DNA of 13,591 nt, taken from contig PRDH01000011.1 of NCBI GenBank assembly GCA_003345545.1, positions 1 to 13,591 of the forward strand, written 5' to 3'. The notes below the pieces were generated by a model. That model was not told where the DNA came from and ran no database searches. It saw nothing but the letters and a program-made list of their open reading frames with translations. Every line of letters begins with the position of its first letter. The first letter of the stretch is position 1. Positions 1 to 13,194 of the stretch are shown in pieces. Position numbers and translations under genes: made by a program. This DNA comes from Candidatus Thorarchaeota archaeon (GTDB lineage: Archaea; Asgardarchaeota; Thorarchaeia; Thorarchaeales; Thorarchaeaceae).

Positions 1-608
1 TCTCCCGTCTTTCGTGATGAAACAGTACGAGGGCCAGACATGCTTTCAATGTGCCCCTCAACTACGACTTGATTCTGACCGTTGTGAAGATCACCTATCA
101 TTGACATCGCCCTTGGAAATTTGTCTGAGAGTTTCTTTTCGTAGTAGTTTCCACTCCATTGAGGGAGGTCGTGTGTCTTTCCAATCTGGACAAATCCAAG
201 TTTCCTGTAGAATGGGTTGGTCCTGACATTCCATTCGGGAGTCCCCAATGCCCATAGCTCGGCTGAGGGATATCCCAGCCAGACTATCTCGAATGCCTTC
301 TCGCCTACGCCCTTTCTCATATGGTCAGGATTCACCCAGATTCTCTCGCACACTTGATATCCTGGGCCCCTATCTCCTGCGATGAATCCTCCAATAATGT
401 TGCCGCTTCTGAGAATCTTGTAGTATTGCAGGTATGGATTGCCGATTATGCCTTTATTCCATTCAACCGAGTCATAGCCCGGAGGGCCGCCTGGGCCAGG
501 AGCTCCTACCTCTGAGTCAGAGTCGAATGCCTTCTTGCATATTCCCGTCAGAATCTCTGCATCTTCCGTTTCTGCTCTGCGGACTGCAATCTCATTTGTC
601 GCGTTCAT
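1..608 (-). CDS. GNAT-family N-acetyltransferase fused to a C-terminal OB-fold (SSB/RPA-like) domain; 3'-partial, runs off the window edge
   Basis: Manual translation from ATG 608, open to base 3 with no stop: MNATNEIAVRRAETEDAEILTGICKKAFDSD...GPGGPPGYDSVEWN...ERIWVNPDHMRKGVGEKA...LGTPEWNVRTNPFYRKLGFVQIG... It has the GNAT acetyl-CoA motif A (VxPxxxRKGVG) and the NxxxxxFYxKLGF motif. It continues as MSMIGDLHNGQNQVVVEGHIESMSGPRTVSSRKTG, resembling the first strands of archaeal SSB/RPA OB folds. Not in the supplied ORF track. Confidence 0.85.
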   Translation of the reverse strand, partial: MNATNEIAVRRAETEDAEILTGICKKAFDSDSEVGAPGPGGPPGYDSVEWNKGIIGNPYLQYYKILRSGNIIGGFIAGDRGPGYQVCERIWVNPDHMRKGVGEKAFEIVWLGYPSAELWALGTPEWNVRTNPFYRKLGFVQIGKTHDLPQWSGNYYEKKLSDKFPRAMSMIGDLHNGQNQVVVEGHIESMSGPRTVSSRKTG

Positions 609-1642: not shown

Positions 1643-3037
1643 TTAGAGTACAGGCCACTTGGGACTGATGTCGACATCAGCCCGCTCCAGAAGCTCAGTG
1701 ATGTGGGACTTGGCCTTCTCCATGACCTCGTCTATGTTCAGCGTCAGGAGTTGCTTGTTGCACATCAGAACCTTCCCGTTCACTATGGTAGTGTCAACAC
1801 TCTGACCACTCCCGCTATAGACAAGATTGGACACGGGATTCACTGCAGGTGTGAGACCAAGTTCGTGTAGGTCGATGATGATGACATCAGCGAGTTTCCC
1901 AGGCTCAAGGGAGCCCACCTTGTCAGCAATTCCCATGGCAACAGCGCCTCTAAGGGTTGCCATCTCGATCACATCCTCAGCACTCACCACGAGGGGGTCC
2001 TTGGCAACTGGCTTATGTATGAGAGCGGCAAGACGCATCTCGCGGACCATGTCATAGGTATTGTTACTGGGTCCGCCATCACACCCGAGAGACACAGGCA
2101 CACCCTGTTCTAACATCTGCGGAATCTTTGCAAATCCCGAGGCAAGTTTTGTATTGCTCGCTGGACAGTGGCTGATGTTAGTATGTGTTTCAGAGAGGGC
2201 CTTCAGCTCAGTATCCTCGAAATGGATGCCATGGGCAAAGACCATCTCAGGGCCAAGCAGGTTGTGCTTCCGTGCAAAGCCAGTGAGGTTCGTGCCGAAG
2301 TTGTCCCGGACATACCTGACATCATCCACGACCTCTCCAAGGTGCATGGTCATGTGGGTCTTCTTCTCCCGGGTCCTCTGGGCGACCTCCATGAATAGGT
2401 CGGGAGTCACACCGCCCAGGGACCTGAGGCCATACCAGACCTGAATGCGGCCATCTGCCTTCCCATGCCACTTTCGGTACATCTGATTGGTCTCGCGCAG
2501 GCAGGCATCAGCATTCTCTACCATCCCGGGATACATAATGTCCGAACTATCGGCATAGCCTGCGGAGTCCATGATGATCTTTGAGAGCCCACCACGCATC
2601 CCGGCTTGCACCACAGCCTTGGCGATTCCATCGAAGCCGTATCGCGTGTGAATCATACAGTCAACAAAGGAGGTAGTGCCGGTTCGAATCATCTCTGCCA
2701 TACAGAGATTTGCGGAAACCCTACCATCATCCTTTGTGAAGTTGCCCTGTAGCACCCAGACATATTTCTTGAGCCAATCAACAAGAGATACATCATCCGC
2801 ACAACCACGTATCAGAGCCTGAGACAGGTGAACATGGGTATCTATGAGACCAGGCATCACGATCTTGTTCTTGGCATCGATGACAGTCTCAGCTCCATGT
2901 GCCTGCAGGGCCTCAGTCTTTCCTACCTCGACTATCTTTGTGTCCTCGATGTAGATGGCACCATCACGGACTATCTGGCGTCTGGGATTGAGGGTCAGAA
3001 CATATCCATTCTTGATTAGTATTGAGTCTGAGGGCAT
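1643..3037 (-). CDS. Metal-dependent amidohydrolase/deaminase (COG0402; guanine/8-oxoguanine/MTA-SAH deaminase and Atz/Trz-like family)
   Basis: Motifs PGLIDTHVHLSQ (HxH), MHLGE (H plus catalytic E), FAHG, HCPASNTKL, LGCDG (metal Asp) and GSLEPGKLADVI. Start moved from 3085 to ATG 3037 (MPSDSILIKNGYVLT), with a GGAGGT SD at 3052-3047. Confidence 0.92.
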   Translation of the reverse strand: MPSDSILIKNGYVLTLNPRRQIVRDGAIYIEDTKIVEVGKTEALQAHGAETVIDAKNKIVMPGLIDTHVHLSQALIRGCADDVSLVDWLKKYVWVLQGNFTKDDGRVSANLCMAEMIRTGTTSFVDCMIHTRYGFDGIAKAVVQAGMRGGLSKIIMDSAGYADSSDIMYPGMVENADACLRETNQMYRKWHGKADGRIQVWYGLRSLGGVTPDLFMEVAQRTREKKTHMTMHLGEVVDDVRYVRDNFGTNLTGFARKHNLLGPEMVFAHGIHFEDTELKALSETHTNISHCPASNTKLASGFAKIPQMLEQGVPVSLGCDGGPSNNTYDMVREMRLAALIHKPVAKDPLVVSAEDVIEMATLRGAVAMGIADKVGSLEPGKLADVIIIDLHELGLTPAVNPVSNLVYSGSGQSVDTTIVNGKVLMCNKQLLTLNIDEVMEKAKSHITELLERADVDISPKWPVL

Positions 3038-3059
3038 TGGCGCTATACCTCCGATGCAG

Positions 3060-3074
3060 ACAGACATCTGGCAG
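3060..3074 (-). promoter_or_regulatory. Candidate operator CTGCCAGATGTCTGT (near-palindromic core CAGAYRTCTG) upstream of the deaminase
   Basis: 13/15 identical to CTACCAGATATCTGT at 7513-7527 upstream of the PreA-like gene; both copies are intergenic. Confidence 0.3.
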
Positions 3075-3108
3075 TAGAATAACATAATGATTGTGGTGCC
3101 GCTGACAT

Positions 3109-4911
3109 TTACTTTACTATCTCGAACTTCAGATCTATACTGAGACCCTCTTCAGGATGCCCCTTTACACGGTCGCGTAGTGTGGGATAGGCACCACCAT
3201 ATTTCTCTGCAAGTCGTCGGACAAGATGGAGCCCGACACCTCCGTATCTCCGAGTTGGGTCAAAGAAATCGATCTTCTTTGCATCTGAAATTCCAGGACC
3301 GTTGTCGGTAATCGTGAGAGTGTATGTCTTGCCAGATGACTTCCCTGAGACACTGACGGTCTTGTACAATTCTTCTTTCGGATTATGAATGACTGCGTTC
3401 TCTAGGAGATTCCATATGAGCTGACTCAGTGCTTGGTCCGCATAGACCATGACATCGCCTTTGAATCCACTGAGATCGGTTCGGACTCCCCGTTGTTTGA
3501 AGAGAAGTTCAGCCTCAGCCTCTACTACTGGACGGAGACGCACAGGTATGAGAGGCTCCGACTTTGATTCCTCAGCACGACGCACTTTTTGAATCAGTTC
3601 AAGGCAACGAAGGGCTCCGTCCATGATGTATCTCTTTGAGCGGACTATCTGGTCAGGCTTGGAGTCGGTATCCAAGAAATCGCTCCCCGCAACAATCAGC
3701 TGCAGCTGATTGCCAATATCATGTAGAAGCAGGTCTAGCAGGAAGTACACCTCAGCCTCAACCTTCTTCATATCAGAAATATCAGTGAATACTGCCATAC
3801 TTCCAGCATACACGCCATCTCGATTCAGTACTGGTGATGCTGAGACCATGACGGGAACAAGGCCGCCCTTCTTGTGAATGAGCTGAGCCTCATAGTGCTC
3901 CAATTTTCCCTCTTTTCGTGCCTTGACTTTTTCGTGCACGTTGTTCTCAGTCCAGCCGTGTAGAATCTCCGTTATTGGATGCCCGACCAGTTCCGCGGGT
4001 GAATCATACCCAAGCATACGGCACAATGCGTCATTGACCAGAACCATCTTGCCATCGCCATCGTCAACACTCAATCCTGAGTCCATTGTTTCCACGAGTG
4101 AGCGATAGCGATATTCTGATTCTTCAAGCGCATGAGCACTCTTCAGTTCCTCAGTAATATCGAGGAGCTGTCCGACTGTTCTAACCTTACCATCTCTGCC
4201 TCTTATGGATCCAACACTCATCCGGATATTACGTGATGCTCCATCCTTGCGTACCACCTTGAACTCGTAGATGGTGGGAACTTCCTCACCCCGTTGACGT
4301 TTTATGTACCGCTCCGAAACTAGTTCAAGACTATCAGGGTGAAGAAACTCACGAAAGTCATGGCCTACGATCTCGCTCCTGAGCCTTCCAAGGATATCAC
4401 AGAGCTTGTCATTCACATATCTGAATCTGTAATCATCGCCGACTATGAGTGTCCCGCTGAGATTATTGTAGTCCACAATATACTCCAGTATCTCTTTTTG
4501 TGAGAGTATCTTCTCTTCAACGGCCTCCCTACGAGCTAGATCAACAACATAAGCAATATAGCCTGTGACCTTCTCGTCTGTCTTGATTGCATTGGCGTAC
4601 ACCTGCGTTGGAACAGCCACACCACTAGGACCGACTACACGAAGTGAGATTGATGTGGGTGTTGCACCCTCGCGGAGCTGATTCAGTCCTTCATGCACCA
4701 GAGCGTGTTGCTCTGGGATGACTAGGGAATCTAGATGAACTCCCGCAGCTATCCTGGAATCATCCAGGTTCAGTAGTTTTGCCGCAGAAGGATTTGCATA
4801 GGTCAGCATGAAATTTAGATCGAACTCCACTACCGGAATCAGCATCATATCTGCCACTTCGTGGAATCCTCTTCTATGCGGGAGCGGCTCTCGCCGGCGT
4901 TTTTGTTTCAT
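3109..4911 (-). CDS. Soluble PAS-domain sensor histidine kinase (3 PAS/PAC + HisKA-like + HATPase_c)
   Basis: Three PAS repeats (LTYANPSAAKLL; FRYVNDKLCDILG...FLHPDS; VLVNDALCRMLGY) ending in DL/DIT/DIS. H-box LLLHDIGNQLQ, N-box LIWNLLENAVIH, G1 DNGPGI, G2 GGVGLHLV. No evident TM helix. Start set at ATG 4911 (MKQKRR); the 5052 start would overlap the divergent promoter region. Confidence 0.92.
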   Translation of the reverse strand: MKQKRRREPLPHRRGFHEVADMMLIPVVEFDLNFMLTYANPSAAKLLNLDDSRIAAGVHLDSLVIPEQHALVHEGLNQLREGATPTSISLRVVGPSGVAVPTQVYANAIKTDEKVTGYIAYVVDLARREAVEEKILSQKEILEYIVDYNNLSGTLIVGDDYRFRYVNDKLCDILGRLRSEIVGHDFREFLHPDSLELVSERYIKRQRGEEVPTIYEFKVVRKDGASRNIRMSVGSIRGRDGKVRTVGQLLDITEELKSAHALEESEYRYRSLVETMDSGLSVDDGDGKMVLVNDALCRMLGYDSPAELVGHPITEILHGWTENNVHEKVKARKEGKLEHYEAQLIHKKGGLVPVMVSASPVLNRDGVYAGSMAVFTDISDMKKVEAEVYFLLDLLLHDIGNQLQLIVAGSDFLDTDSKPDQIVRSKRYIMDGALRCLELIQKVRRAEESKSEPLIPVRLRPVVEAEAELLFKQRGVRTDLSGFKGDVMVYADQALSQLIWNLLENAVIHNPKEELYKTVSVSGKSSGKTYTLTITDNGPGISDAKKIDFFDPTRRYGGVGLHLVRRLAEKYGGAYPTLRDRVKGHPEEGLSIDLKFEIVK

Positions 4912-4947
4912 GGCCGTGCATCTACAGGCTTTGATGGTCACCACTAT

Positions 4948-4967
4948 ATGTCCAAAATCGATTGGAC
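4948..4967. promoter_or_regulatory. Candidate regulator-binding site: GTCCAA-N6-TTGGAC inverted repeat overlapping the 16-mer AATCGATTTTGGACAT (minus strand)
   Basis: Lies in the divergent kinase/Fe-S-AOR spacer. The 16-mer (4963 to 4948) matches 10968-10983 in the second divergent spacer at 15/16. Confidence 0.45.
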
Positions 4968-5090
4968 GCAGAGTGGAATACAAGACTGAACCACTAATAT
5001 CTTTGTATGATGTATACGACCAAGAGGAACAACTTAAGAGCCAACTATACATTTGCGTGGGGGCTTACAGAATACAGGAGAAACCACCCT

Positions 5091-5582
5091 GTGAAAGACA
5101 TACTCGCCATCGACTTGAGACTGTGCACAGGATGTCGCAGCTGTGAGCTTGCCTGCTCTATTGCCCATACGCGATCTTTCAACCCGAAGAGGTCGAGGAT
5201 TCAGATTCTGAAAGAGGAGGTCAGGAATCTCGTTGTACCCATGGTATGCCTGCAATGCGAACGGCCCCTCTGCCAAGAGGCGTGTCCGAATGGCGCGATA
5301 GTGGAGAACAAACACGGAGTTCTCTACGTTGATAGTGAAATCTGCATTGGTTGCATGAACTGCGTGACTGCATGTGTATACGGTGGGATTGCCATCGACC
5401 CCGTGACTAGAAGAGCAATAAAGTGCGACCTGTGTAAGGGAGATCCAGCTTGCGCCAAGGCATGCCAATACGGTGCAATCAGTCTCAGCACCTCAGAGGC
5501 AGGAGGGCTCAATCAACGCAGGAGAGGGGTCGTGCCAGCATTTCGAACGCTGGGAATCCAGGTAGAGGAGGGAAGAGAGTGA
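5091..5582 (+). CDS. 4x[4Fe-4S] electron-transfer protein (DmsB/HydN/AorA-like), probable small subunit of the adjacent AOR
   Basis: 16 Cys in four motifs: CTGCRSCELAC, CLQCERPLCQEAC, CIGCMNCVTAC, CDLCKGDPACAKAC. GTG start at 5091 with AGGAG at 5076-5080. The stop overlaps the AOR start (GTGA). Confidence 0.93.
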   Translation: MKDILAIDLRLCTGCRSCELACSIAHTRSFNPKRSRIQILKEEVRNLVVPMVCLQCERPLCQEACPNGAIVENKHGVLYVDSEICIGCMNCVTACVYGGIAIDPVTRRAIKCDLCKGDPACAKACQYGAISLSTSEAGGLNQRRRGVVPAFRTLGIQVEEGRE

Positions 5583-7507
5583 CATTTCCATACAAGGGCT
5601 ATGCAGGGAAATACCTGGATGTCGACCTCACAAAGGGCGTTGTCCATGTGAAAGACATGGAGAAGGAGTGGGCAAGGCTTTTCCTCGGAGGCAGCGGGGT
5701 TTCTTCAAAGATACTCTGGGAGAGAACGAATGCCAGGACAGACCCGTTGTCACCCCAGAATATACTGATCGCAGGGACCGGGCCCCTCACTGGTGCATTG
5801 TTCTCACCATCGGGGAGAATGATGTTTGCAGCAAGAGGCCCCCTGACAGGTGTATGGGCGGAGTCCCATGTTGGTGGATTCATGGGTCCTGAGATGAAGT
5901 ACGCGGGATTCGACTTTGTCATCTTCAATGGGCGTTCCAAGAAGCCCGTCTATCTCTTCATGAGGGACGGACACGCAGAGCTCAGGGACGCCTCGCACGT
6001 CTGGGGGCAAGAGACCAATATCACAACAGTGATGATCCGTGAAGAACACAAGGACCCGTCGATTGAGACTGCGGTCATTGGGCCTGCGGGAGAGCACGGA
6101 GTACTCTACGGTTCCATCACTGTGGACTTCTATCGTGCAGCAGGGCGAGCCGGTCTTGGGGCGGTGATGGGGTCTAAGAATCTGAAGGGCATAGCAGCCT
6201 CTGGAGCCATCGGTCTGGAGGCGTATGACATGGACAAATTCGTCGAGGCCAGCGCACGCGAGGTGGCAAAGCTCAACGACCCTCTTTGGAAGGAATCACT
6301 TGCATCACTAAGAAAGTATGGGACCACAGGCCTTGTAGCCGTCATCAATCAGATTGGAAGACTCCCCACAAAGAACCACTGGACTGGCTACTATGAGCTG
6401 GCCGAGGATATCGGTCCTGAGATCATTGCAGAGAAGTACAGGATTGGACAAGAAGCATGCTATGGATGTGCAATCGGCTGCAAATACATCATCCGCATAA
6501 AGGACGGTGACTACGCTACAGAACCTGTCGGTGGCCAAGAATATGAAACAATCATGGCCTTTGGTTCTAACTGCCTGAATAACGATATTGAGTCCATCCT
6601 CCATCTGGGCAAGAGGTGTGACTTGCTTGGTCTGGATACCATATCATGCGGTAAGACAATCGGATTTGCAATGGAGCTCTTTGAGAAGGGCATCTTGACG
6701 GAGAAGGACACAGGAGGTATTGACCTCACCTGGGGCAACAAGGAGGCACAGGTCAAGCTTGTCGAGATGATTGCTAGGAGGGAGGGTATAGGTGACATTC
6801 TCGCAAACGGGGTCAGAAAGGCAGCCGAGCAGATAGGTGGTGATGCATGGAAGTATGCAGTCCATGTGAAGGGGCTCGAGGCCTCGGGACAGGACCCACG
6901 GGCACATCAGAGCGTTGGTCTGACATATGCCACAAATGTGCGCGGAGCAGACCACCTTAGAAGCCTGTCAAGCCTAGAAGAGCTGGGATATCCGAATATC
7001 GTCATCCAACGGTTTGGTGAGGAGAAAGCGGATGCAATCCTAAATATCATGTCACCAAAGTACAAGGGCCAGGTTGTGTGGGACATGGAGGACCTGTATG
7101 CCTTGGTCGATTCTGCAGTGATATGTAAGTACTCAACGATGTGGCCTCCGGTATTCTATTATGACACGTTTGTCAATGTCATCCCGTCCCTGACTGGCAT
7201 GAAGGAGTGGTCAGACCCGAAGTACGTGCGGCAGACTGCGGAGAGGATAAGCCACCTCAGACGAGCATTCAATCACAGGCTTGGAATCACGCGGAAAGAC
7301 GAGACCCTGCCTCCGAGGTTGCTGCATGAGCCGATGCCAACCGGACCTGCAAAGGGTGGACTTCCAGACCTTGACGAGATGCTTGATGAGTACTACGAGT
7401 ATCGTGGCTGCGACAGAGAGACCGGGTACCCGAAGGAGTCGAAGCTCAAAGATCTGCAGCTAGACTTCGTGGTTGATACGCTCAAGCCCAAGGGAATGAC
7501 GCGGTAG
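5579..7507 (+). CDS. aor: Tungsten-containing aldehyde:ferredoxin oxidoreductase (AOR/WOR) family catalytic subunit
   Basis: GYAGKYLDVDLT N-terminus, GPLTG...GGFMGPEMKYAGFD, IGPAGE, AAGRAGLGAVMGSKNLK, [4Fe-4S] ligands CYGCAIGC plus ICKY, EYET, DLLGLDTISCG, VKGLE, GADH. Real start is GTG 5579, overlapping the upstream TGA; the ORF-track extension from 5450 is not AOR-like. Confidence 0.95.
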   Translation: MTFPYKGYAGKYLDVDLTKGVVHVKDMEKEWARLFLGGSGVSSKILWERTNARTDPLSPQNILIAGTGPLTGALFSPSGRMMFAARGPLTGVWAESHVGGFMGPEMKYAGFDFVIFNGRSKKPVYLFMRDGHAELRDASHVWGQETNITTVMIREEHKDPSIETAVIGPAGEHGVLYGSITVDFYRAAGRAGLGAVMGSKNLKGIAASGAIGLEAYDMDKFVEASAREVAKLNDPLWKESLASLRKYGTTGLVAVINQIGRLPTKNHWTGYYELAEDIGPEIIAEKYRIGQEACYGCAIGCKYIIRIKDGDYATEPVGGQEYETIMAFGSNCLNNDIESILHLGKRCDLLGLDTISCGKTIGFAMELFEKGILTEKDTGGIDLTWGNKEAQVKLVEMIARREGIGDILANGVRKAAEQIGGDAWKYAVHVKGLEASGQDPRAHQSVGLTYATNVRGADHLRSLSSLEELGYPNIVIQRFGEEKADAILNIMSPKYKGQVVWDMEDLYALVDSAVICKYSTMWPPVFYYDTFVNVIPSLTGMKEWSDPKYVRQTAERISHLRRAFNHRLGITRKDETLPPRLLHEPMPTGPAKGGLPDLDEMLDEYYEYRGCDRETGYPKESKLKDLQLDFVVDTLKPKGMTR

Positions 7508-7512
7508 AACAG

Positions 7513-7545
7513 CTACCAGATATCTGTTCAGGAGAATGATTTATG
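7513..7545 (+). promoter_or_regulatory. Palindrome CAGATATCTG (7517-7526) and TATA-like TTTATG (7540-7545) before the PreA-like gene; possible internal promoter/operator
   Basis: Perfect 10-bp palindrome in a 62-nt spacer. TTTATG sits about 25-30 nt upstream of ATG 7570, the spacing expected for an archaeal leaderless transcript. Confidence 0.3.
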
Positions 7546-7569
7546 TTCATGGAGCTGTAGGTCACGTCT

Positions 7570-8661
7570 ATGGCAGACATCAGTGTTGAGTTGCTTGGAC
7601 TCAGATTCAGGAACCCGATTCTCACCGCAGCTGGACCGGCCTCGAGAGATGGTATGACACTCCTCAATGCAGCTGCAGGTGGAGCTGGTGGGCTTGTAGC
7701 CAAGACTGTGAGCGTCAGGCCGGCAGATGTCCCAAGGCCGAATATGGCAGCTCTCAAGGAGGGAAGAGTTGGATCAAGACTGGGTATGCTCAATGCGGAA
7801 CTCTGGAGTGAACTTCCCCTCGAAACTTGGCTTGAAAGAGAGTATCCGATAGCACTGAGCTCGGGGCTGCCACTGATTGCCAGTGTTGGGTACACTCCTA
7901 AAGATGTCAGCGCGATTGCGCCAAAACTAGAGAAGGCTGGCGCAAAGGCGATTGAGTTCAGTACGCACTATGTCGGAGGCCATGTTGAGATCGCTAAGGC
8001 GCTGAGAGATGCCGTGGACATCCCGATTATCGCGAAGCTGAGCCCAAAGGTGGATGTGGCAGAGGTGGCGCGAGCACTGGAGCCCTATGTTGACGCCATA
8101 GCTGCAATCAATACCTTTGGCCCATGTCTCAGGATAGACGTGGAGTCAGGAAGACCTATGCTTGGGAGCAGTGACGGTTACGGATGGATGAGTGGCTCTG
8201 CCCTGAAGCCCATAGCACTGAGATGTGTTGCGGATATTGCACAGGCCATCAGACTCCCGATTATTGGAGTGGGCGGTGTGATGTCAGGCGAAGATGTCAT
8301 CGAGTTCCTCATGGCAGGAGCATCAGCAGTTCAGGTGTGTACAGCCGCAATCCTTGAAGGGCATACGGTATACGGGAAGATAGCAGGACAGGTTGAGGAG
8401 TGGCTGGACAGACATGACTACTCCTCCATACAGGATGTCCAGGGAATGGCGCTTCAGCACTTGAAACAGGGGGTCTCTCTGGAGCCACCACCCACAGTAG
8501 ATCTGGACAAGTGTACACGCTGCGGACTATGTGAGAAGTCCTGCGTCTATGGAGCAATCACAGTGAAGAAATCAGAGAACATCTTTGCAATAGACGCTGA
8601 CAAGTGTGAGGCCTGTGGAATGTGCATCTCTGTATGCCCATACTATGCTCTTAGCTATTGA
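7570..8661 (+). CDS. Dihydropyrimidine dehydrogenase PreA/PydA-like (class 1 DHOD fold) FMN protein with C-terminal 2x[4Fe-4S]; non-canonical active-site loop
   Basis: FRNPILTAAGP, GGLVAKT, GMLNAELWSE, AKLSP, AINT, GWMSGSALKPIAL, IGVGGV, GASAVQVCTA. C-terminal CTRCGLCEKSC and CEACGMCISVC. The usual ELNxSCP loop reads IEFSTHYVGG. Confidence 0.88.
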   Translation: MADISVELLGLRFRNPILTAAGPASRDGMTLLNAAAGGAGGLVAKTVSVRPADVPRPNMAALKEGRVGSRLGMLNAELWSELPLETWLEREYPIALSSGLPLIASVGYTPKDVSAIAPKLEKAGAKAIEFSTHYVGGHVEIAKALRDAVDIPIIAKLSPKVDVAEVARALEPYVDAIAAINTFGPCLRIDVESGRPMLGSSDGYGWMSGSALKPIALRCVADIAQAIRLPIIGVGGVMSGEDVIEFLMAGASAVQVCTAAILEGHTVYGKIAGQVEEWLDRHDYSSIQDVQGMALQHLKQGVSLEPPPTVDLDKCTRCGLCEKSCVYGAITVKKSENIFAIDADKCEACGMCISVCPYYALSY

Positions 8662-8733
8662 GCGTTTCCCGATTGCCTCTGAGAGCACAAGCAGTTGTCT
8701 AAGCTGACTTGATGCATTATATCACTACAGTCC

Positions 8734-9918
8734 TCAGACAAAGAGGATATCATCGATGCCAGTGGTGAGTCTTCTAGCTCTCCCTTTGGTGACCGCATAG
8801 TCGTTTTCGATACGTACACCACCAACGGATTTCAGATAGACGCCTGGTTCAATGGCCATGACATGTCCCTCAAGGAATGGTTCCTCACGGCTGTACATGC
8901 TGGGCAATTCATGCACCTCAAGGCCTATACCATGCCCGAGCCCGTGCGTCATGCCGTCCTTCGCATCTGGATTGAGTCGACGGGAGTCGAACCCATGTTG
9001 CTTCAGGGTGTTGACACAGGCGAGGTTCACCTTATCGATGAGAGTACCATCAGTCAGAGCATCCACGGATGCTTCGGCAGCAGCAGCAACAGCATCGAAC
9101 ATCTTCTGCACGCGCCTTGGAACAGGTCCTCTCACAACAGTGCGAGTCACGTCGGCAACGTATCGTTCCAGTTTCAACCTTGGAAACACATCCATGATGA
9201 CAGGAGCTCCGCCCTTGAACCTGTCACCTTGCGCACCGAGATAGTGCCAGTCAAAGGCCTTGCTTCCGACTGCGACAATGGCATCCTCAGAGGACTCTGC
9301 CCCCCTGTCAAGCAGAAAGTGTTCCAGGGCCAGCTTGATCATTCCCACAGTCAGCGGGTTCCCCTTGTGCATCAGAACCTTGTTGGCTCCAATCGTGCTG
9401 TTCTTCACCATCTCTACGACCTGCATAATGGCACCAGTCGTCGCATCACCAGCCTTCTTGATGGTCTTGATCTCTTTCACAGACTTTCTGGCTCGCGCCT
9501 CAAGAACAAGGTCACGAACCACCTTGACGGTGTACCCCATCTTCTGAAGCATCACAAGCAGACTTGCAGGAAACTCATCAGGAACACCAAGAATCTTTCC
9601 TGAGAACTGAGCTCTCAATAGGGAGCCGTAGATCTGGTCCATGTTGTCATTGACCTTCTTGTTCTCATGGAGTATCTTCAGAACGACATCGGTGAAGTCA
9701 TGTGTGTGAGTGATGAAGCTCTCCTTTACGACGCGTTCAAGTGCGAGGAATGAGGCGGCTACAAGAGGCGCATCTCCGCGATTCTTGAGATAGATTATCT
9801 CGTCAGTGGAGCGAAATCCTGTCAGCCAATACACACTAGGATTGTCAAAGGCACTACCACATGTCAGTAGTGCGTCGATTCCATACCTCTCCATGAGGGG
9901 ATCTAGGTCTTCATACAT
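8734..9918 (-). CDS. M24 family metallopeptidase (Xaa-Pro dipeptidase/aminopeptidase P-like) with creatinase-like N-terminal domain
   Basis: Metal ligands D (MDVFP), D (ADVTRT), H (HGLGHGIGLEVHE), E (IEPGVY), E (GVRIEND); N-terminal SVYWLTGF. Start probably ATG 9918 (MYEDL) with GAGG upstream; GTG 9948 is the alternative. Confidence 0.92.
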   Translation of the reverse strand: MYEDLDPLMERYGIDALLTCGSAFDNPSVYWLTGFRSTDEIIYLKNRGDAPLVAASFLALERVVKESFITHTHDFTDVVLKILHENKKVNDNMDQIYGSLLRAQFSGKILGVPDEFPASLLVMLQKMGYTVKVVRDLVLEARARKSVKEIKTIKKAGDATTGAIMQVVEMVKNSTIGANKVLMHKGNPLTVGMIKLALEHFLLDRGAESSEDAIVAVGSKAFDWHYLGAQGDRFKGGAPVIMDVFPRLKLERYVADVTRTVVRGPVPRRVQKMFDAVAAAAEASVDALTDGTLIDKVNLACVNTLKQHGFDSRRLNPDAKDGMTHGLGHGIGLEVHELPSMYSREEPFLEGHVMAIEPGVYLKSVGGVRIENDYAVTKGRARRLTTGIDDILFV

Positions 9919-9968
9919 TTGACTTGCCTCGGCCCGATGATGGGGCACATCATGAAAAAGGCTTCTGT

Positions 9969-10877
9969 TTACGCCTGAATATACGCCCGCATGCGGGACT
10001 CAACCATGGACCGCGTGGGCATGTCATAGGGTCCCACAGACTCTACATTGAAGGAGGCACAGGTCGCCGCGAACAGCCCTGCGCGCCGGACATCACCAGA
10101 CCGCATGTACTCTAGCAGGAAACCAATCGTGTATGTGTCGCCGCAACCAGTCGTGTCTGCTTGGACCCTCGCAAGCACTAACGGAATCTTCACCTGTGAA
10201 TTTCGAGTATAGATGACGGAACCTCGTTGGCCATGAGTCACTAGAACTACTCTTGGACCAAGACTGAGTATCTGACTGGCGGCTGATAGCTCGGATTCTG
10301 CTCTAACTGTGGCGAACAACTCACTTACATGAAATTTCACGACGTCCACTAGTTCCAGAATCTCATCCCGCGCTGTCCAATTCTTTGGAGTGACCACCCC
10401 ACTACGGTCGATCGATCGGGTGTAGCCCTGAACATCGAGAGACGTGAGGGCGGCGCTTGAGCGGGCCTGTTTAATACACTCAGTGCTAATCTCTTCAGCT
10501 GTCAGCGGAGAGAAATGGATGACATTCGCCTCAAGATGGTCGTCTGTGAAGTCCTTTGGCCTGATTGGGGGAGCTAGCGCTTCCACATACTGAACGCGGG
10601 CACCAGAAGTATCATACTTGTTCACGAACCGTGTTGATTTCGGTCCCTCAGTGAGTAGTCCGGAGAGATCAAGACCTGAGGAGCGCAGGGTGTCACGATA
10701 GCTCTGCTCGAAGTCAGTTCCTACCTTCGTGACAATCCCAGCCCCGAATGCGCCAATAGAGGGGGCAAGCATTGCATAAGCAGTACCTCCTCCAAGCGCC
10801 TCTTTGGTAGTATTAGGCGTTATGATGAGGTCTCTGCTAAGATGACCTGCAACAACAATTTCCAATGGACTTCTCAC
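9969..10877 (-). CDS. PfkB/ribokinase family carbohydrate or nucleoside kinase
   Basis: N-terminal VAGHLSRD...LGGGTAY, KVGTDF, VTHGQRGS, anion-hole motif DTTGCGDTY, C-terminal AATCASFNVESVG. GTG start. Confidence 0.9.
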   Translation of the reverse strand: MRSPLEIVVAGHLSRDLIITPNTTKEALGGGTAYAMLAPSIGAFGAGIVTKVGTDFEQSYRDTLRSSGLDLSGLLTEGPKSTRFVNKYDTSGARVQYVEALAPPIRPKDFTDDHLEANVIHFSPLTAEEISTECIKQARSSAALTSLDVQGYTRSIDRSGVVTPKNWTARDEILELVDVVKFHVSELFATVRAESELSAASQILSLGPRVVLVTHGQRGSVIYTRNSQVKIPLVLARVQADTTGCGDTYTIGFLLEYMRSGDVRRAGLFAATCASFNVESVGPYDMPTRSMVESRMRAYIQA

Positions 10878-10918: not shown

Positions 10919-10983
10919 TTTAACTTATACGCTGAGATGTGGACTCTGTGCATAAGGCAATTGTTTTAATCGATTTTGGGCAT
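10919..10983. promoter_or_regulatory. Divergent promoter region: TATA-like TATAAGTTAAA (minus, 10929-10919) for pfkB, and TTTTAA (plus, 10964-10969) overlapping the 16-mer AATCGATTTTGGGCAT (10968-10983) for the moaD operon
   Basis: AT-rich boxes roughly 40 nt upstream of each divergent start. The 16-mer recurs at 4948-4963 with one mismatch. Confidence 0.4.
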
Positions 10984-11006: not shown

Positions 11007-11288
11007 TTGGCTCAGGTCACTGTGAAATTCTTTGCTACTGTCAGAGAAGTGACAGGGGTAAAGAGCAGAGAGATGGAGGCGAACACTATTAGAGACCTCC
11101 TTGATGGCTTGAAAGTGGCCTATGGAGAGAGGTTTACAGACACAGTGTTCGATAGAGCAACAGGCAATCTGAAGCAGTTCTATTCTTGCATGGTGAATGG
11201 TAGACGGATTGAGTTGCTTGATGGCTATGAAACGAAACTCTCAGACAATGATGCGGTGGCGCTGTTCCCACCTGTTGGGGGCGGATGA
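11007..11288 (+). CDS. moaD: MoaD/ThiS/SAMP ubiquitin-like sulfur carrier protein
   Basis: 93 aa, TTG start. VTVKFFATVRE N-terminus, VNGRRI, and DAVALFPPVGGG C-terminal di-glycine. Such genes commonly accompany AOR-family genes. Confidence 0.9.
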   Translation: MAQVTVKFFATVREVTGVKSREMEANTIRDLLDGLKVAYGERFTDTVFDRATGNLKQFYSCMVNGRRIELLDGYETKLSDNDAVALFPPVGGG

Positions 11289-11289
11289 G

Positions 11290-12699
11290 ATGAGTAGTTC
11301 ACTTACATCAAAACACAGGAAACAGACTGGCAGAGGAAGTGTGGACCTCGTCGTACGAAATGCGCAGCTATTGATGGAGTCTGGACTTGTGCGGGGAGGA
11401 CTAGGAGTCAAAGGAGGAACCATCTGCATCATCGCCACTGATGAGCATCTCCCCGAGGGAGATGTCACAATCGACGCACGAGAAAGAATCCTGATGCCAG
11501 GACTGATAGATGGGCATGCACACATCCATGACCCGGCTATGCTGTCCCACGAGAGCTTTCAATCAGGCTCCAGAGCTGCAGCAGGAGGGGGAGTCACGAC
11601 AGTCATCGATATGCCTCTGACCAGTCAAGTTGACTCAATCAAGTCGGTTGAAGAGAAGATACAGCAGGGCAAGGCACACTCAGTGGTCGATTTCAGCTTC
11701 TATGCAGGGATGATCAACTCTGGCAACGTATCTATCATACCGACCTTCATAGAGAAAGGAATTGCAGCCTTCAAGGCCTTTACCTGCGCACCCTATCAGG
11801 CAGGAACAGGAGTAATAGCAAAGGCCTTGAGTGAGGTCTCAGAGTACGGAGGACATCTCACAGTACACTCTGAGGACCAGGGTGTTCTTGATGAGTTCAA
11901 GAAGGACATGGATGGTGAATGGGATGCTCCAATCAGTCATTCACTGGCACGACCCAATCTTGCTGAGCAGCTTGCTGTAAGGCAGAACATCTCCCTGGCG
12001 GAACAGACAGGAGGCCACCTGCATATAGCGCACGTCACTACGCGAGAGGGTCTTAGTGAGATTGAGAGTGCAAAACTGCGTGGCATCATGGTGACTACAG
12101 AGGTATGTCCGCATCACCTTGTGTTCTATAGGGATGATATGAACCGTCTGGGGCCAAGAAGCAAGATGAACCCGCCTCTCAGGACCAAGGAGGACAGAGC
12201 TGCACTCTGGTCAGCACTGCTCCGAGGGATGATTGACATCACAGTGAGCGACCATGCGCCCTGTCCTATTGAGAAGAAAGAGGCGGGAAAAGATGATATC
12301 AGAGAGGCATGGGCGGGAGTCGATGGAACTCAGATGATTCTCAGGGTCCTGCTCTCAGAGGGAATCAACAAGGGAAGGCTCTCGTACACAAGGCTGCTCA
12401 GGGTGGCAGCACGGAACCCTGCACGTATCTTTGGCCTTTACCCAAAGAAAGGAACACTCCGGATAGGCTCTGATGCAGACTTCGTCATCATCGACCCCGA
12501 CAGAGAGGAGAAGATCACTGCAGAGATGATGTTCTCGAAGTGTGAGTGGACTCTCTATGAGGGAATGACAATGAAGGGCTCCCCGGAGATGACCTTCGTT
12601 CGGGGGACGCAGGTATTTGGCGACGGCAAAATACTCACCAAACCAGGACGAAGTGAATTCCAAGCTATGGGAAGCGGGGGACGACCAGTAGGAGAGTGA
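11290..12699 (+). CDS. Cyclic amidohydrolase (allantoinase/hydantoinase/dihydroorotase superfamily), most similar in motifs to allantoinase or L-hydantoinase
   Basis: PGLIDGHAH (HxH), AAAGGGVTTVIDMP, AFKAF (carbamylated Lys), VHSED, HIAHVT, EVCPHHL, KMNPPLR, SDHAP, AWAGV, NPARIFGLYPKKG. Start is ATG 11290, 1 nt after the moaD stop, or GTG 11341 (VDLVVRNA, GAGG upstream). Confidence 0.92.
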   Translation: MSSSLTSKHRKQTGRGSVDLVVRNAQLLMESGLVRGGLGVKGGTICIIATDEHLPEGDVTIDARERILMPGLIDGHAHIHDPAMLSHESFQSGSRAAAGGGVTTVIDMPLTSQVDSIKSVEEKIQQGKAHSVVDFSFYAGMINSGNVSIIPTFIEKGIAAFKAFTCAPYQAGTGVIAKALSEVSEYGGHLTVHSEDQGVLDEFKKDMDGEWDAPISHSLARPNLAEQLAVRQNISLAEQTGGHLHIAHVTTREGLSEIESAKLRGIMVTTEVCPHHLVFYRDDMNRLGPRSKMNPPLRTKEDRAALWSALLRGMIDITVSDHAPCPIEKKEAGKDDIREAWAGVDGTQMILRVLLSEGINKGRLSYTRLLRVAARNPARIFGLYPKKGTLRIGSDADFVIIDPDREEKITAEMMFSKCEWTLYEGMTMKGSPEMTFVRGTQVFGDGKILTKPGRSEFQAMGSGGRPVGE

Positions 12700-12702
12700 A
12701 TT

Positions 12703-13194
12703 GTGAGCGAACTCAAATTTGTCTTTGGCGACCCGCAAGTCTGTTCAGGCTGTATGATCTGCGTGAACGTATGCAGCATGTATTACTTCAAGGTGATAAG
12801 CCCAACACGGTCACGTGTGCGAGTTGTGAGAGCTGAGCCAGGTCTGGATTTCCCACTCTTCTGCCGCAACTGCGAGGATGCACCCTGCATCGATGCCTGC
12901 CCATCGGCTGCCTTGAGTCGCACCTCCAAGGGAATTGTCATTGTGAACAATAACAAGTGTGATGGTACAGGTGAGTGCGTTGAAGCTTGTCCGTACAATG
13001 CCATCCACATCAATCCGGACACAGGGAAAGCCATCAAGTGCATCCAGTGTGGCCAGTGCGTGGACCGCTGCCCTGCAGACGCCCTGTTCATGACCATGAA
13101 AGAGGACCTTGCCAAGAGGGATAAGGAGGGACGAATGATGGCACTGTACGAGAAGCATAAGACAGAGCTGTACGGCGAGGAGGAGGATTATTGA
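12703..13194 (+). CDS. Multi-cluster Fe-S electron-transfer protein (DmsB/HydN/AorA-like), probable small subunit of the second AOR
   Basis: CSGCMICVNVC, CRNCEDAPCIDAC, CDGTGECVEAC (one Cys replaced by Thr), CIQCGQCVDRC. GTG start; the stop overlaps the next ATG (TGATG). Confidence 0.93.
   Translation: MSELKFVFGDPQVCSGCMICVNVCSMYYFKVISPTRSRVRVVRAEPGLDFPLFCRNCEDAPCIDACPSAALSRTSKGIVIVNNNKCDGTGECVEACPYNAIHINPDTGKAIKCIQCGQCVDRCPADALFMTMKEDLAKRDKEGRMMALYEKHKTELYGEEEDY

Follow-up and report, generated by a model that had tools for sequence, protein, structure and literature searches.

A polyferredoxin, AOR-family and FMN-reductase gene trio as the candidate core of a reductive purine degradation cluster in Thorarchaeota

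In the reductive uric-acid/2,8-dioxopurine pathway, urate is reduced to 2,8-dioxopurine by XdhD/DOPDH, 2,8-dioxopurine is dearomatised by YgfK in E. coli or by the PF01180 protein UacX in C. difficile, and the rings are opened by SsnA and HyuA (PMC12507026; bioRxiv 10.1101/2025.04.24.650524). In a separate field, the 2026 classification of the tungsten-type WOR enzymes assigned a defined physiological role to five of 92 clades, described Thr243, Glu313, Tyr427 and His448 as conserved in aldehyde-oxidising members, and contained no class that has a DHOD-like partner or is set in a nucleobase context; the Class V enzyme CsWOR41 was reported to be without aldehyde-oxidising activity (PMC13328260). 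The window analyzed here, 13,591 nucleotides (nt), is the whole of contig C11 (PRDH01000011.1) of a 2.69-Mb Candidatus Thorarchaeota metagenome-assembled genome (MAG) that is 93% complete. It carries three consecutive forward-strand genes, at 5091-8661, for a polyferredoxin (FeS1), an AOR-family large subunit (AOR1) and a DHOD/DPD-superfamily FMN protein (PRE). The trio was judged, with a probability of about 0.55, to be the central part of an archaeal form of the reductive purine (uric acid/2,8-dioxopurine) degradation cluster in which FeS1 and AOR1 occupy the place of XdhD/DOPDH.

The neighborhoods of PRE relatives carry this reading. PRE orthologues with the same active-site loop and 44-51% identity were found in 18 of 401 sampled genomes of the phylum Bacillota, in clusters of the type YgeY-YgeW-YqeA-XdhC-XdhC-MocA-XdhD-PRE-HyuA or AmhA-SsnA-YgfM-XdhA-PRE. 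An XDH large-subunit gene lies at most about 100 nt upstream of PRE in nine of 16 Bacillota loci. The Asgard family f5 shows the order XdhA...PRE-SsnA-HyuA...YgeW-YgeY with no AOR, and its YgeY is 60% identical to that of E. coli. Because the PRE subfamily directly follows an XDH-family gene both in Bacillota and in f5, the Fe-S and AOR pair most plausibly stands in for XdhD/DOPDH and not, as the initial annotation had proposed, for PreT, the NAD(P)H-input subunit of PreA. In Hadarchaeum, PRE is followed by XdhC, MocA-like, MoeA and MogA genes, an arrangement that matches E. coli yqeB-mocA-ygfK.

Clusters with an AOR share the purine-type company. Downstream genes of the YgeW/YqeA, YgeY and YgeX types were found in the AOR-type clusters L143, L148, L150, L162 and L229. 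Locus L148 reads FeS-AOR-FeS-AOR-PRE-PALP-M20-OTCase-AmhA, its M20 protein being 41% identical to YgeY, while L143 carries two OTCases, AmhB and PALP, and L162 carries YqeA and YgeW. The Bacillota locus L229 reads FeS-AOR...YqeA-YgeY-YgeW-SsnA-PRE-HyuA, and a PnrA/Bmp-type nucleoside ABC transporter is encoded upstream at L164. In the window, the cyclic amidohydrolase AmhB is 31% identical to E. coli HyuA (1e-61). Across loci L055-L174, 93 have AOR only, four have XDH only and none has both; no XDH-family molybdenum hydroxylase was found in the AOR-type loci of this set. The present MAG as a whole gave 12 AFOR_N matches and zero matches to the XDH family (MoCoBD_1).

FeS1 contains 16 cysteines in four CxxCxxCxxxC-type motifs, which amount to four [4Fe-4S] sites, and all 16 are invariant among 26 aligned orthologues. 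Its closest solved relatives are AorA (8c0z_C, 1e-30) and WorS (9mqx_E, 7e-25). AOR1 matches the Pfam families AFOR_N (4.9e-70) and AFOR_C (4.2e-125) and, among known structures, WorL of A. mobile (9mqx_D, 1e-126), PfAOR (1aor, 4e-123) and AorB (8c0z_A, 2e-116). Equivalents of the PfAOR residues Thr243, Glu313 and His448 and of the cluster cysteines 288, 291, 295 and 494 are retained. The predicted AOR1 and FeS1 proteins thus present both the tungstopterin plus [4Fe-4S] features of WorL and the four clusters of WorS. FeS1 is also 36% identical over its full length to E. coli YgfS, and because of this likeness the four-cluster wire may be an old companion of the purine/uric-acid pathway. YgfS is a polyferredoxin encoded beside YgfT in the purine/uric-acid region of E. 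coli (ygfS-ygfT, L181:28525-30932).

Of the pocket set of aldehyde-oxidising Class I/II WOR enzymes, AOR1 keeps three of four residues; the fourth, Tyr427, is changed to Gln. Gln at this position, together with an RGADH motif, was seen in every PRE-linked AOR examined, in three clades and all phyla, including Bacillota locus L229. Eight comparable AOR paralogues of this genome that fall outside the PRE-linked clades have Tyr, His, Trp or Val there. A quick maximum-likelihood tree with SH-aLRT support placed the PRE-adjacent AORs in a single clade, AOR1 (support 99), which always lies beside PRE. The second AOR of the clusters forms the AOR2 clade (support 100) and is conserved in the same clusters. 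A third PRE-linked clade includes a pair on contig C19 of the present genome, and the three clades are jointly separate from other paralogues.

The C19 pair, at 39997-42368, is a third FeS-AOR pair with the Gln-for-Tyr427 signature. It is unlinked from PRE in this genome, with a YgeY-like M20 gene 13 kb away, and members of its clade are encoded immediately downstream of PRE in Baldr, Kor and other Thermoproteota clusters. On contig C17 (1878-3752), an AOR-family match lies within a 1218-residue open frame and may represent a fused or extended AOR.

The same data bear on a simpler role, in which AOR1/FeS1 and AOR2/FeS2 would be ordinary Class II aldehyde:ferredoxin oxidoreductases that supply reduced ferredoxin or remove a reactive aldehyde, PRE drawing on free ferredoxin. 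AOR1 is highly similar to characterised AORs of broad range and retains Glu313 and His448, which is consistent with this role. Class II WorLS enzymes use ferredoxin as their partner (PMC13328260), and reduced ferredoxin or viologen serves as the donor for Clostridial PydAc and UacX. Nevertheless, this role is considered unlikely: the known reductive purine and pyrimidine routes involve no free aldehyde before their last steps, and electron supply would not call for two to three distinct AOR paralogues of ancient conservation in each cluster. The alternation of AOR and XDH in one slot and a pocket change specific to the PRE-linked clades also argue against it.

The initial annotation had described the third gene as an FMN enzyme with two [4Fe-4S] clusters of the PreA type. 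The first part stands: PRE matches DHO_dh (1.5e-33, residues 5-278) and has a C-terminal eight-Cys 2x[4Fe-4S] domain in which all eight cysteines (C315, 318, 321, 325, 346, 349, 352 and 356) are invariant. The assignment to PreA does not hold. PreA (NF006183) is the best NCBIfam model at 198.5 bits, far under its cut-off of 335, and pyrD_sub1 gave 183 bits against a cut-off of 270. Aligned to pig DPD, PRE has a short E-F-S-T-H-Y stretch where DPD has E-L-N-L-S-C-P-H and a long flap; the loop is about 12 residues shorter, and the catalytic Cys and preceding Asn of the N-x-S-C-P loop are missing. The FMN-binding Lys45 and Lys156 are kept, as are Asn75 and Asn181/Thr182, the equivalents of the pyrimidine-binding residues of DPD.

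All PRE orthologues with 44% identity or more, from about 120 loci, have the short Cys-less loop, as does Asgard family f5 (35-38%), and the subfamily can be recognised by its E-[FL]-S-T-H-Y loop and by LNxELWS. Short loops of other kinds occur in four homologues at 37-41% identity. Thorarchaeota paralogues L088-L094 and the PyrD of this genome have the canonical Cys loop. These paralogues belong to a second PreA-like group of many Thorarchaeota and other Asgard genomes, proteins of about 405 residues with an ELNVSCPHG loop and 30-34% identity to PRE (for example L090:9010-10194). Their genes lie close to that of a DHPase-like amidohydrolase, and neither an AOR nor a PreT-like gene occurs within 9 kb. 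They are likely to be the true pyrimidine reductases; no such paralogue was found in this MAG.

PRE might still be taken for a ferredoxin-dependent dihydropyrimidine dehydrogenase of the PreA/PydA kind. It would then start a uracil/thymine route with AmhB as dihydropyrimidinase and a peptidase, and AOR would oxidise malonic semialdehyde. The top rank of the PreA model, the retained Asn75 and Asn181/Thr182, and the matches of AmhB to D-hydantoinase/dihydropyrimidinase models speak for it. The sub-threshold score and the loss of the catalytic Cys and its Asn throughout the subfamily make it very improbable. The ELNVSCPHG paralogue is the better pyrimidine candidate, and the bacterial PRE orthologues stand in uric-acid clusters and not in Pyd clusters. 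By analogy of genomic context, PRE would instead be UacX-type. It would define a Cys-less DHOD/DPD subfamily in which His133 and Tyr134 probably replace the usual Cys as proton donor.

A source of electrons in the form of a pyridine-nucleotide subunit was not apparent. Neither preT nor pyrK was found in the window, as the initial annotation had stated, nor was any Pyr_redox/FAD gene; the third gene of the trio encodes a DHO_dh/Fer4 protein and not a WorN/AorC. When about 140 related loci were searched by tblastn with the GltD- and PyrK-like proteins of the genome, no such gene was found next to PRE. The sole PyrK-like match near PRE is weak (21%), about 7 kb away and confined to a single Heimdall locus (L075/L140). 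Within the genome, the DHO_dh genes are two, PRE and a canonical PyrD that accompanies the one PyrK proper on contig C68. The possibility of a preT elsewhere, also raised earlier, was followed up in the MAG at its 93% completeness, and GltD/PreT-like genes occur only in other settings: a 489-residue protein on contig C70, beside a PyrK-like gene and of NfnAB/SudAB type, and a 925-residue Hdr/Bam-like fusion on contig C47, beside a BamB-like AOR.

The C47 locus (4915-10395, L023) encodes the 925-residue HdrA/GltD-like flavoprotein fusion and a CCG-domain, HdrB-like protein, divergent from a 728-residue AOR-family gene. The gene group resembles a module of the class II benzoyl-CoA-reductase (Bam) type.

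Gene order was surveyed in 80 species-level loci from GTDB genomes, found with a set of close PRE homologues. In Thorarchaeota, FeS1-AOR1 lies upstream of PRE on the same strand in 37 of 37 loci with enough flank. The spacing between AOR1 and PRE is at most 150 nt in 14 of these, 151-1100 nt in nine, and an insert of 2-4 kb is present in 14. One further Thorarchaeota locus from a separate genome search, L065, has no AOR1 upstream of PRE. All 11 Hermod-like loci have an AOR-PRE gap of 26-29 nt. FeS-AOR pairs were present in all loci of the Baldr, Heimdall, Bathyarchaeia, Nitrososphaeria-labelled and Thermoproteota/Kor groups and in one Coprothermobacterota and one Bacillota locus. A frequent order in these non-Thorarchaeota lineages is FeS-AOR-PRE-FeS-AOR-AmhB-AOR, with junctions that overlap or are 0-3 nt long; the AOR stop and PRE start overlap or abut at L164, L148 and L143. 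An AOR within 9 kb of PRE was found in none of seven Hadarchaeales loci. Conservation of the gene order, which had been singled out for checking, is borne out: the AOR1 clade and PRE are adjacent on the same strand across Asgard families, and the arrangement is found again in archaeal and bacterial phyla far removed from them. The link between AOR and PRE is ancient.

Many Thorarchaeota genomes carry a same-strand CLC chloride-channel/CBS gene of 612 codons between AOR1 and PRE (L014:6118-7956; also L057, L058, L095, L098, L099 and others). Inserts of 0.5 kb or 4 kb occur at this place in other Thorarchaeota genomes; none is present in this window or in its nearest relative.

Such adjacency raises the possibility that FeS1, AOR1 and PRE form a stable three-subunit enzyme with tungsten, Fe-S and FMN centers, PRE being a plug on a WorSL-type nanowire in the place of AorC/WorN and receiving electrons from the tungsten site directly. 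The WorS/AorA wire is known to accept different plugs, AorC and, through a C-terminal helix, WorABC (PMC12318220). PRE lacks a donor module and has the distal 2x[4Fe-4S] domain only; the free-ferredoxin user PydAc of Clostridia, in contrast, is described with two Fdx domains (PMC7332683). The overlapping or 0-30 nt junctions of the AOR-PRE(-FeS-AOR) order in Hermod-like, Thermoproteota/Kor, Nitrososphaeria-labelled, Coprothermobacterota and Bacillota clusters fit such a unit. A redox-neutral scheme is also conceivable, in which electrons from hydroxylation would be consumed by dehydroxylation and ring reduction.

Nevertheless, an obligate complex is not required, because the PRE subfamily occurs beside XDH enzymes and, as in Hadarchaeales, with no adjacent AOR, and because Thorarchaeota often separate the genes, with 0.15-4 kb between AOR1 and PRE in 23 of 37 loci and with L065 as a case lacking the upstream AOR1. 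PRE ends directly after its last Cys motif and has no WorS/WorA-like C-terminal helix. Both steps of the known pathway consume electrons, and a flow from tungsten to FMN is a supposition. A complex prediction for the FeS1 and PRE pair returned a score of 0.00, run with no controls, which is no answer and counts neither for nor against binding. Adjacency would be explained equally well, and in the first place, by consecutive pathway steps, by analogy with xdhD and ygfK in bacteria. The three-subunit enzyme is therefore regarded as doubtful.

The transcription of PRE also bears on such a complex. The TATA-like box TTTATGTT lies upstream of the PRE start codon, and no Shine-Dalgarno motif was found at a usable distance before the ATG. 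An equivalent box at -36 to -20 was found in 37 of 45 species-level Thorarchaeota loci, this window included, regardless of the upstream gene; the remaining eight have a gap of about 20 nt with a Shine-Dalgarno-like motif. Because of the conserved box and the lack of a usable Shine-Dalgarno motif, PRE in this genome probably has its own leaderless promoter, with read-through from AOR1 possible. The internal promoter suspected earlier in the 62-nt gap (7508-7569) gains support from this conservation, and a separate promoter weighs against a fixed three-subunit unit. A sigma-70 promoter and terminator scan gave results at shuffle level, with a model not applicable to archaea. Contigs from two wetland metatranscriptomes matched parts of FeS1, AOR1 and PRE; contigs from one such RNA library did so for all three genes at 99% identity or more, weak evidence of expression given possible DNA carry-over. 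No RNA contig covers 7479-7760, hence none spans the AOR1-PRE gap.

For the favored purine-type cluster, the following mechanism is proposed. FeS1 and AOR1 would take the role of XdhD/DOPDH in interconverting urate and 2,8-dioxopurine, with the polyferredoxin as the built-in electron wire of AOR1. PRE would be a reductase of UacX type with FMN and [4Fe-4S] centers and no need of NAD(P)H, and its task would be to dearomatise an oxopurine-like ring; the amidohydrolases would open the ring after this step. AOR2 and AOR3 may correspond to further XDH-type enzymes of the bacterial clusters. Electrons would enter or leave at ferredoxin potential through the Fe-S chains, with no pyridine-nucleotide subunit; direct contact between FeS1 and PRE is possible in this scheme and not required. 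A bolder version, which must be rated as distinctly unlikely, takes all Tyr427-to-Gln AORs for purine-ring (de)hydroxylases, with AOR1 acting on urate/2,8-dioxopurine and AOR2 and AOR3 on hypoxanthine/xanthine. The polyferredoxins would form a shared wire on which PRE docks, and electrons from ring hydroxylation would be fed internally to dehydroxylation and ring reduction, in a redox-balanced machine free of pyridine nucleotides.

Several points weigh against a purine cluster built around AOR1. To our knowledge, activity on an N-heterocycle is not documented for any member of the AOR family. The nearest relatives of AOR1 are broad-range aldehyde oxidoreductases, and it retains the three pocket residues named above. 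Apart from the Fe-S motifs, no similarity of PRE to E. coli YgfK could be detected. The exclusion of XDH by AOR is also imperfect: Bacillota locus L231 has an XDH together with an AOR fragment at the locus edge. Complementarity of the two families across whole genomes was considered and rejected, since Hadarchaeales have both and XDH occurs elsewhere in three of five AOR-type genomes; the alternation holds within loci only. YgeW, YgeX and YgeY are absent from the Thorarchaeota cluster, and YqeA (or UacY) is likewise missing from the window, which has M24 and PfkB genes instead. There is no clear SsnA in that cluster either, AmhA being 22% identical to SsnA and 26.5% to its best E. coli match, GuaD; a better SsnA match (30%) lies on contig C76. 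Because the cluster lacks YgeW/X/Y and a clear SsnA, a compound other than urate may be the substrate in Thorarchaeota. Full-text searches of the literature brought up no report that connects AOR-family enzymes with clusters for the degradation of purines or pyrimidines.

The features of the window are collected in Table 1. The GTG start of AOR1 overlaps the stop of FeS1 by 4 nt (GTGA). AmhA scores below the cut-off of every NCBIfam equivalog, and all NCBIfam matches of AmhB are likewise under their equivalog cut-offs. The PAS kinase probably starts near 4911, its orthologues having about 600 residues. The NCBIfam matches of the PfkB-family kinase are weak only and include ribose-1-phosphate and nucleoside kinases. 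A MoaD-like gene adjoins PRE-linked AORs repeatedly, in many phyla.

Table 1. Features of the 13,591-nt window
Feature	Position	Strand	Basis or remark
AmhA, COG0402 amidohydrolase (deaminase/SsnA superfamily)	1643..3085	-	Amidohydro_1 1.6e-69; conserved cluster member
PAS sensor histidine kinase, divergent from FeS1	3109..5052	-	Pfam; position conserved in Thorarchaeota loci
FeS1, WorS/AorA-type polyferredoxin subunit	5091..5582	+	GTG start, 163 aa; orthologues share start site
AOR1, tungstopterin AOR/WorL-family large subunit	5579..7507	+	642 aa; AFOR_N + AFOR_C
AOR1 Gln438 codon, at PfAOR Tyr427 pocket position	6890..6892	+	Motif SGQDPR in place of LPAYDPR
TATA-like box	7540..7547	+	23-30 nt upstream of PRE ATG; probable leaderless promoter
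PRE, DHOD/DPD-superfamily FMN barrel + C-terminal 2x[4Fe-4S] domain	7570..8661	+	363 aa; Pfam, NCBIfam, PDB, family alignment
PRE active-site loop E129-F-S-T-H-Y134	7954..7971	+	HMMER alignment to pig DPD
M24 metallopeptidase, convergent with PRE	8734..9948	-	Peptidase_M24 4e-38; conserved in Thorarchaeota loci
PfkB-family kinase	9969..10877	-	PfkB 3e-24
MoaD/SAMP-like small protein	11007..11288	+	TIGR01687 moaD_arch 76 bits, cut-off 49.5
AmhB, cyclic amidohydrolase (hydantoinase/allantoinase/DHPase family), HyuA-like	11290..12699	+	Start inferred from orthologue length, 462-469 aa
FeS2, second WorS-type polyferredoxin	12703..13194	+	Pfam, alignment
AOR2, N-terminal 133 aa, cut by contig end	13191..13591	+	PRK09849 N-terminal match 3e-32

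At the contig edge, a 202-residue open frame (3-608, reverse strand), previously read as a GNAT plus OB fold, had no match in Pfam or NCBIfam when searched at default thresholds. An inverted repeat of 16 nt, complementary at 15 of 16 positions and with the palindromic core AATCGATT, lies in both divergent intergenic regions, at 4948-4963 and 10968-10983. A role as a conserved operator was rejected, as the repeat was found in other Thorarchaeota species in one of 32 cases upstream of FeS1 and in one of 29 upstream of MoaD. A few kb from the PRE cluster of Hadarchaeum, L168:13242-14834 encodes a eukaryote-type topoisomerase IB (Topoisom_I_N, Topoisom_I, Topo_C_assoc).

Nearly all characterised WOR members are treated as aldehyde oxidisers. 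The PRE-linked enzymes would be a pocket-modified, anciently conserved AOR group in the place of a selenium/molybdenum XDH-type enzyme in many archaeal phyla, including Asgard, and in some bacteria. They are testable candidates for a class of reaction new to the AOR family, N-heterocycle (de)hydroxylation at very low potential. They also point to a form of the purine pathway, itself described only in 2025, that would be based on tungsten and independent of selenium and molybdenum. PRE is a natural candidate as a further kind of plug on the WorSL nanowire, and the distribution of the clusters suggests that nucleobase fermentation is a conserved trait of sediment Asgard archaea.

Compared with the bacterial reductive uric-acid clusters (E. 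coli xdhD-ygfM, ygfK, ssnA, hyuA, ygeW/X/Y and yqeA; C. difficile XdhD, UacX and UacY; C. sporogenes DOPDH and DOPOR), the trio likewise has a pterin-enzyme gene directly before that of a flavin/Fe-S ring reductase, and amidohydrolases of the COG0402 and hydantoinase types lie alongside. Bacillota PRE orthologues (44-51%) take the position of UacX (PF01180), and the Clostridial form is thought to be ferredoxin-dependent. In contrast, the pterin enzyme of the trio is predicted to be AOR-family and tungsten-type, with a separate four-cluster polyferredoxin, and not an XDH-family molybdenum (selenium) hydroxylase. XdhC, YqeB and MocA are missing from its cluster, which has a MoaD-like gene instead, and the Thorarchaeota version, lacking YgeW/X/Y, contains genes for M24, PfkB and a PAS kinase. 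PRE is also unrelated by sequence to YgfK.

The AorABC enzyme of Aromatoleum aromaticum (Class III WOR, WorLSN) and WorABCSL of Acetomicrobium mobile (Class IV) resemble the trio in their individual subunits, FeS1 being nearest to AorA/WorS and AOR1 to WorL, PfAOR and AorB, and in gene layout, with the Fe-S gene first, the tungsten subunit starting in overlap and a redox gene third. They differ in that the third gene of the trio would encode a substrate-reducing FMN enzyme and not an FAD/NAD subunit or Bfu module, in the Gln at the Tyr427 equivalent of AOR1, and in that a complex is hypothetical for the trio. With PreA/PreT of E. coli, mammalian DPD and Clostridial PydAc, PRE shares a DHOD-type FMN barrel followed by a 2x[4Fe-4S] domain, the PreA/PydA2 architecture, and the conserved equivalents of Lys45, Lys156, Asn75 and Asn181/Thr182. 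It differs from them in having no accompanying PreT, in lacking the N-terminal Fdx domain of PydAc, and in the replacement of the N-x-S-C-P loop and long flap by the short F-S-T-H-Y.

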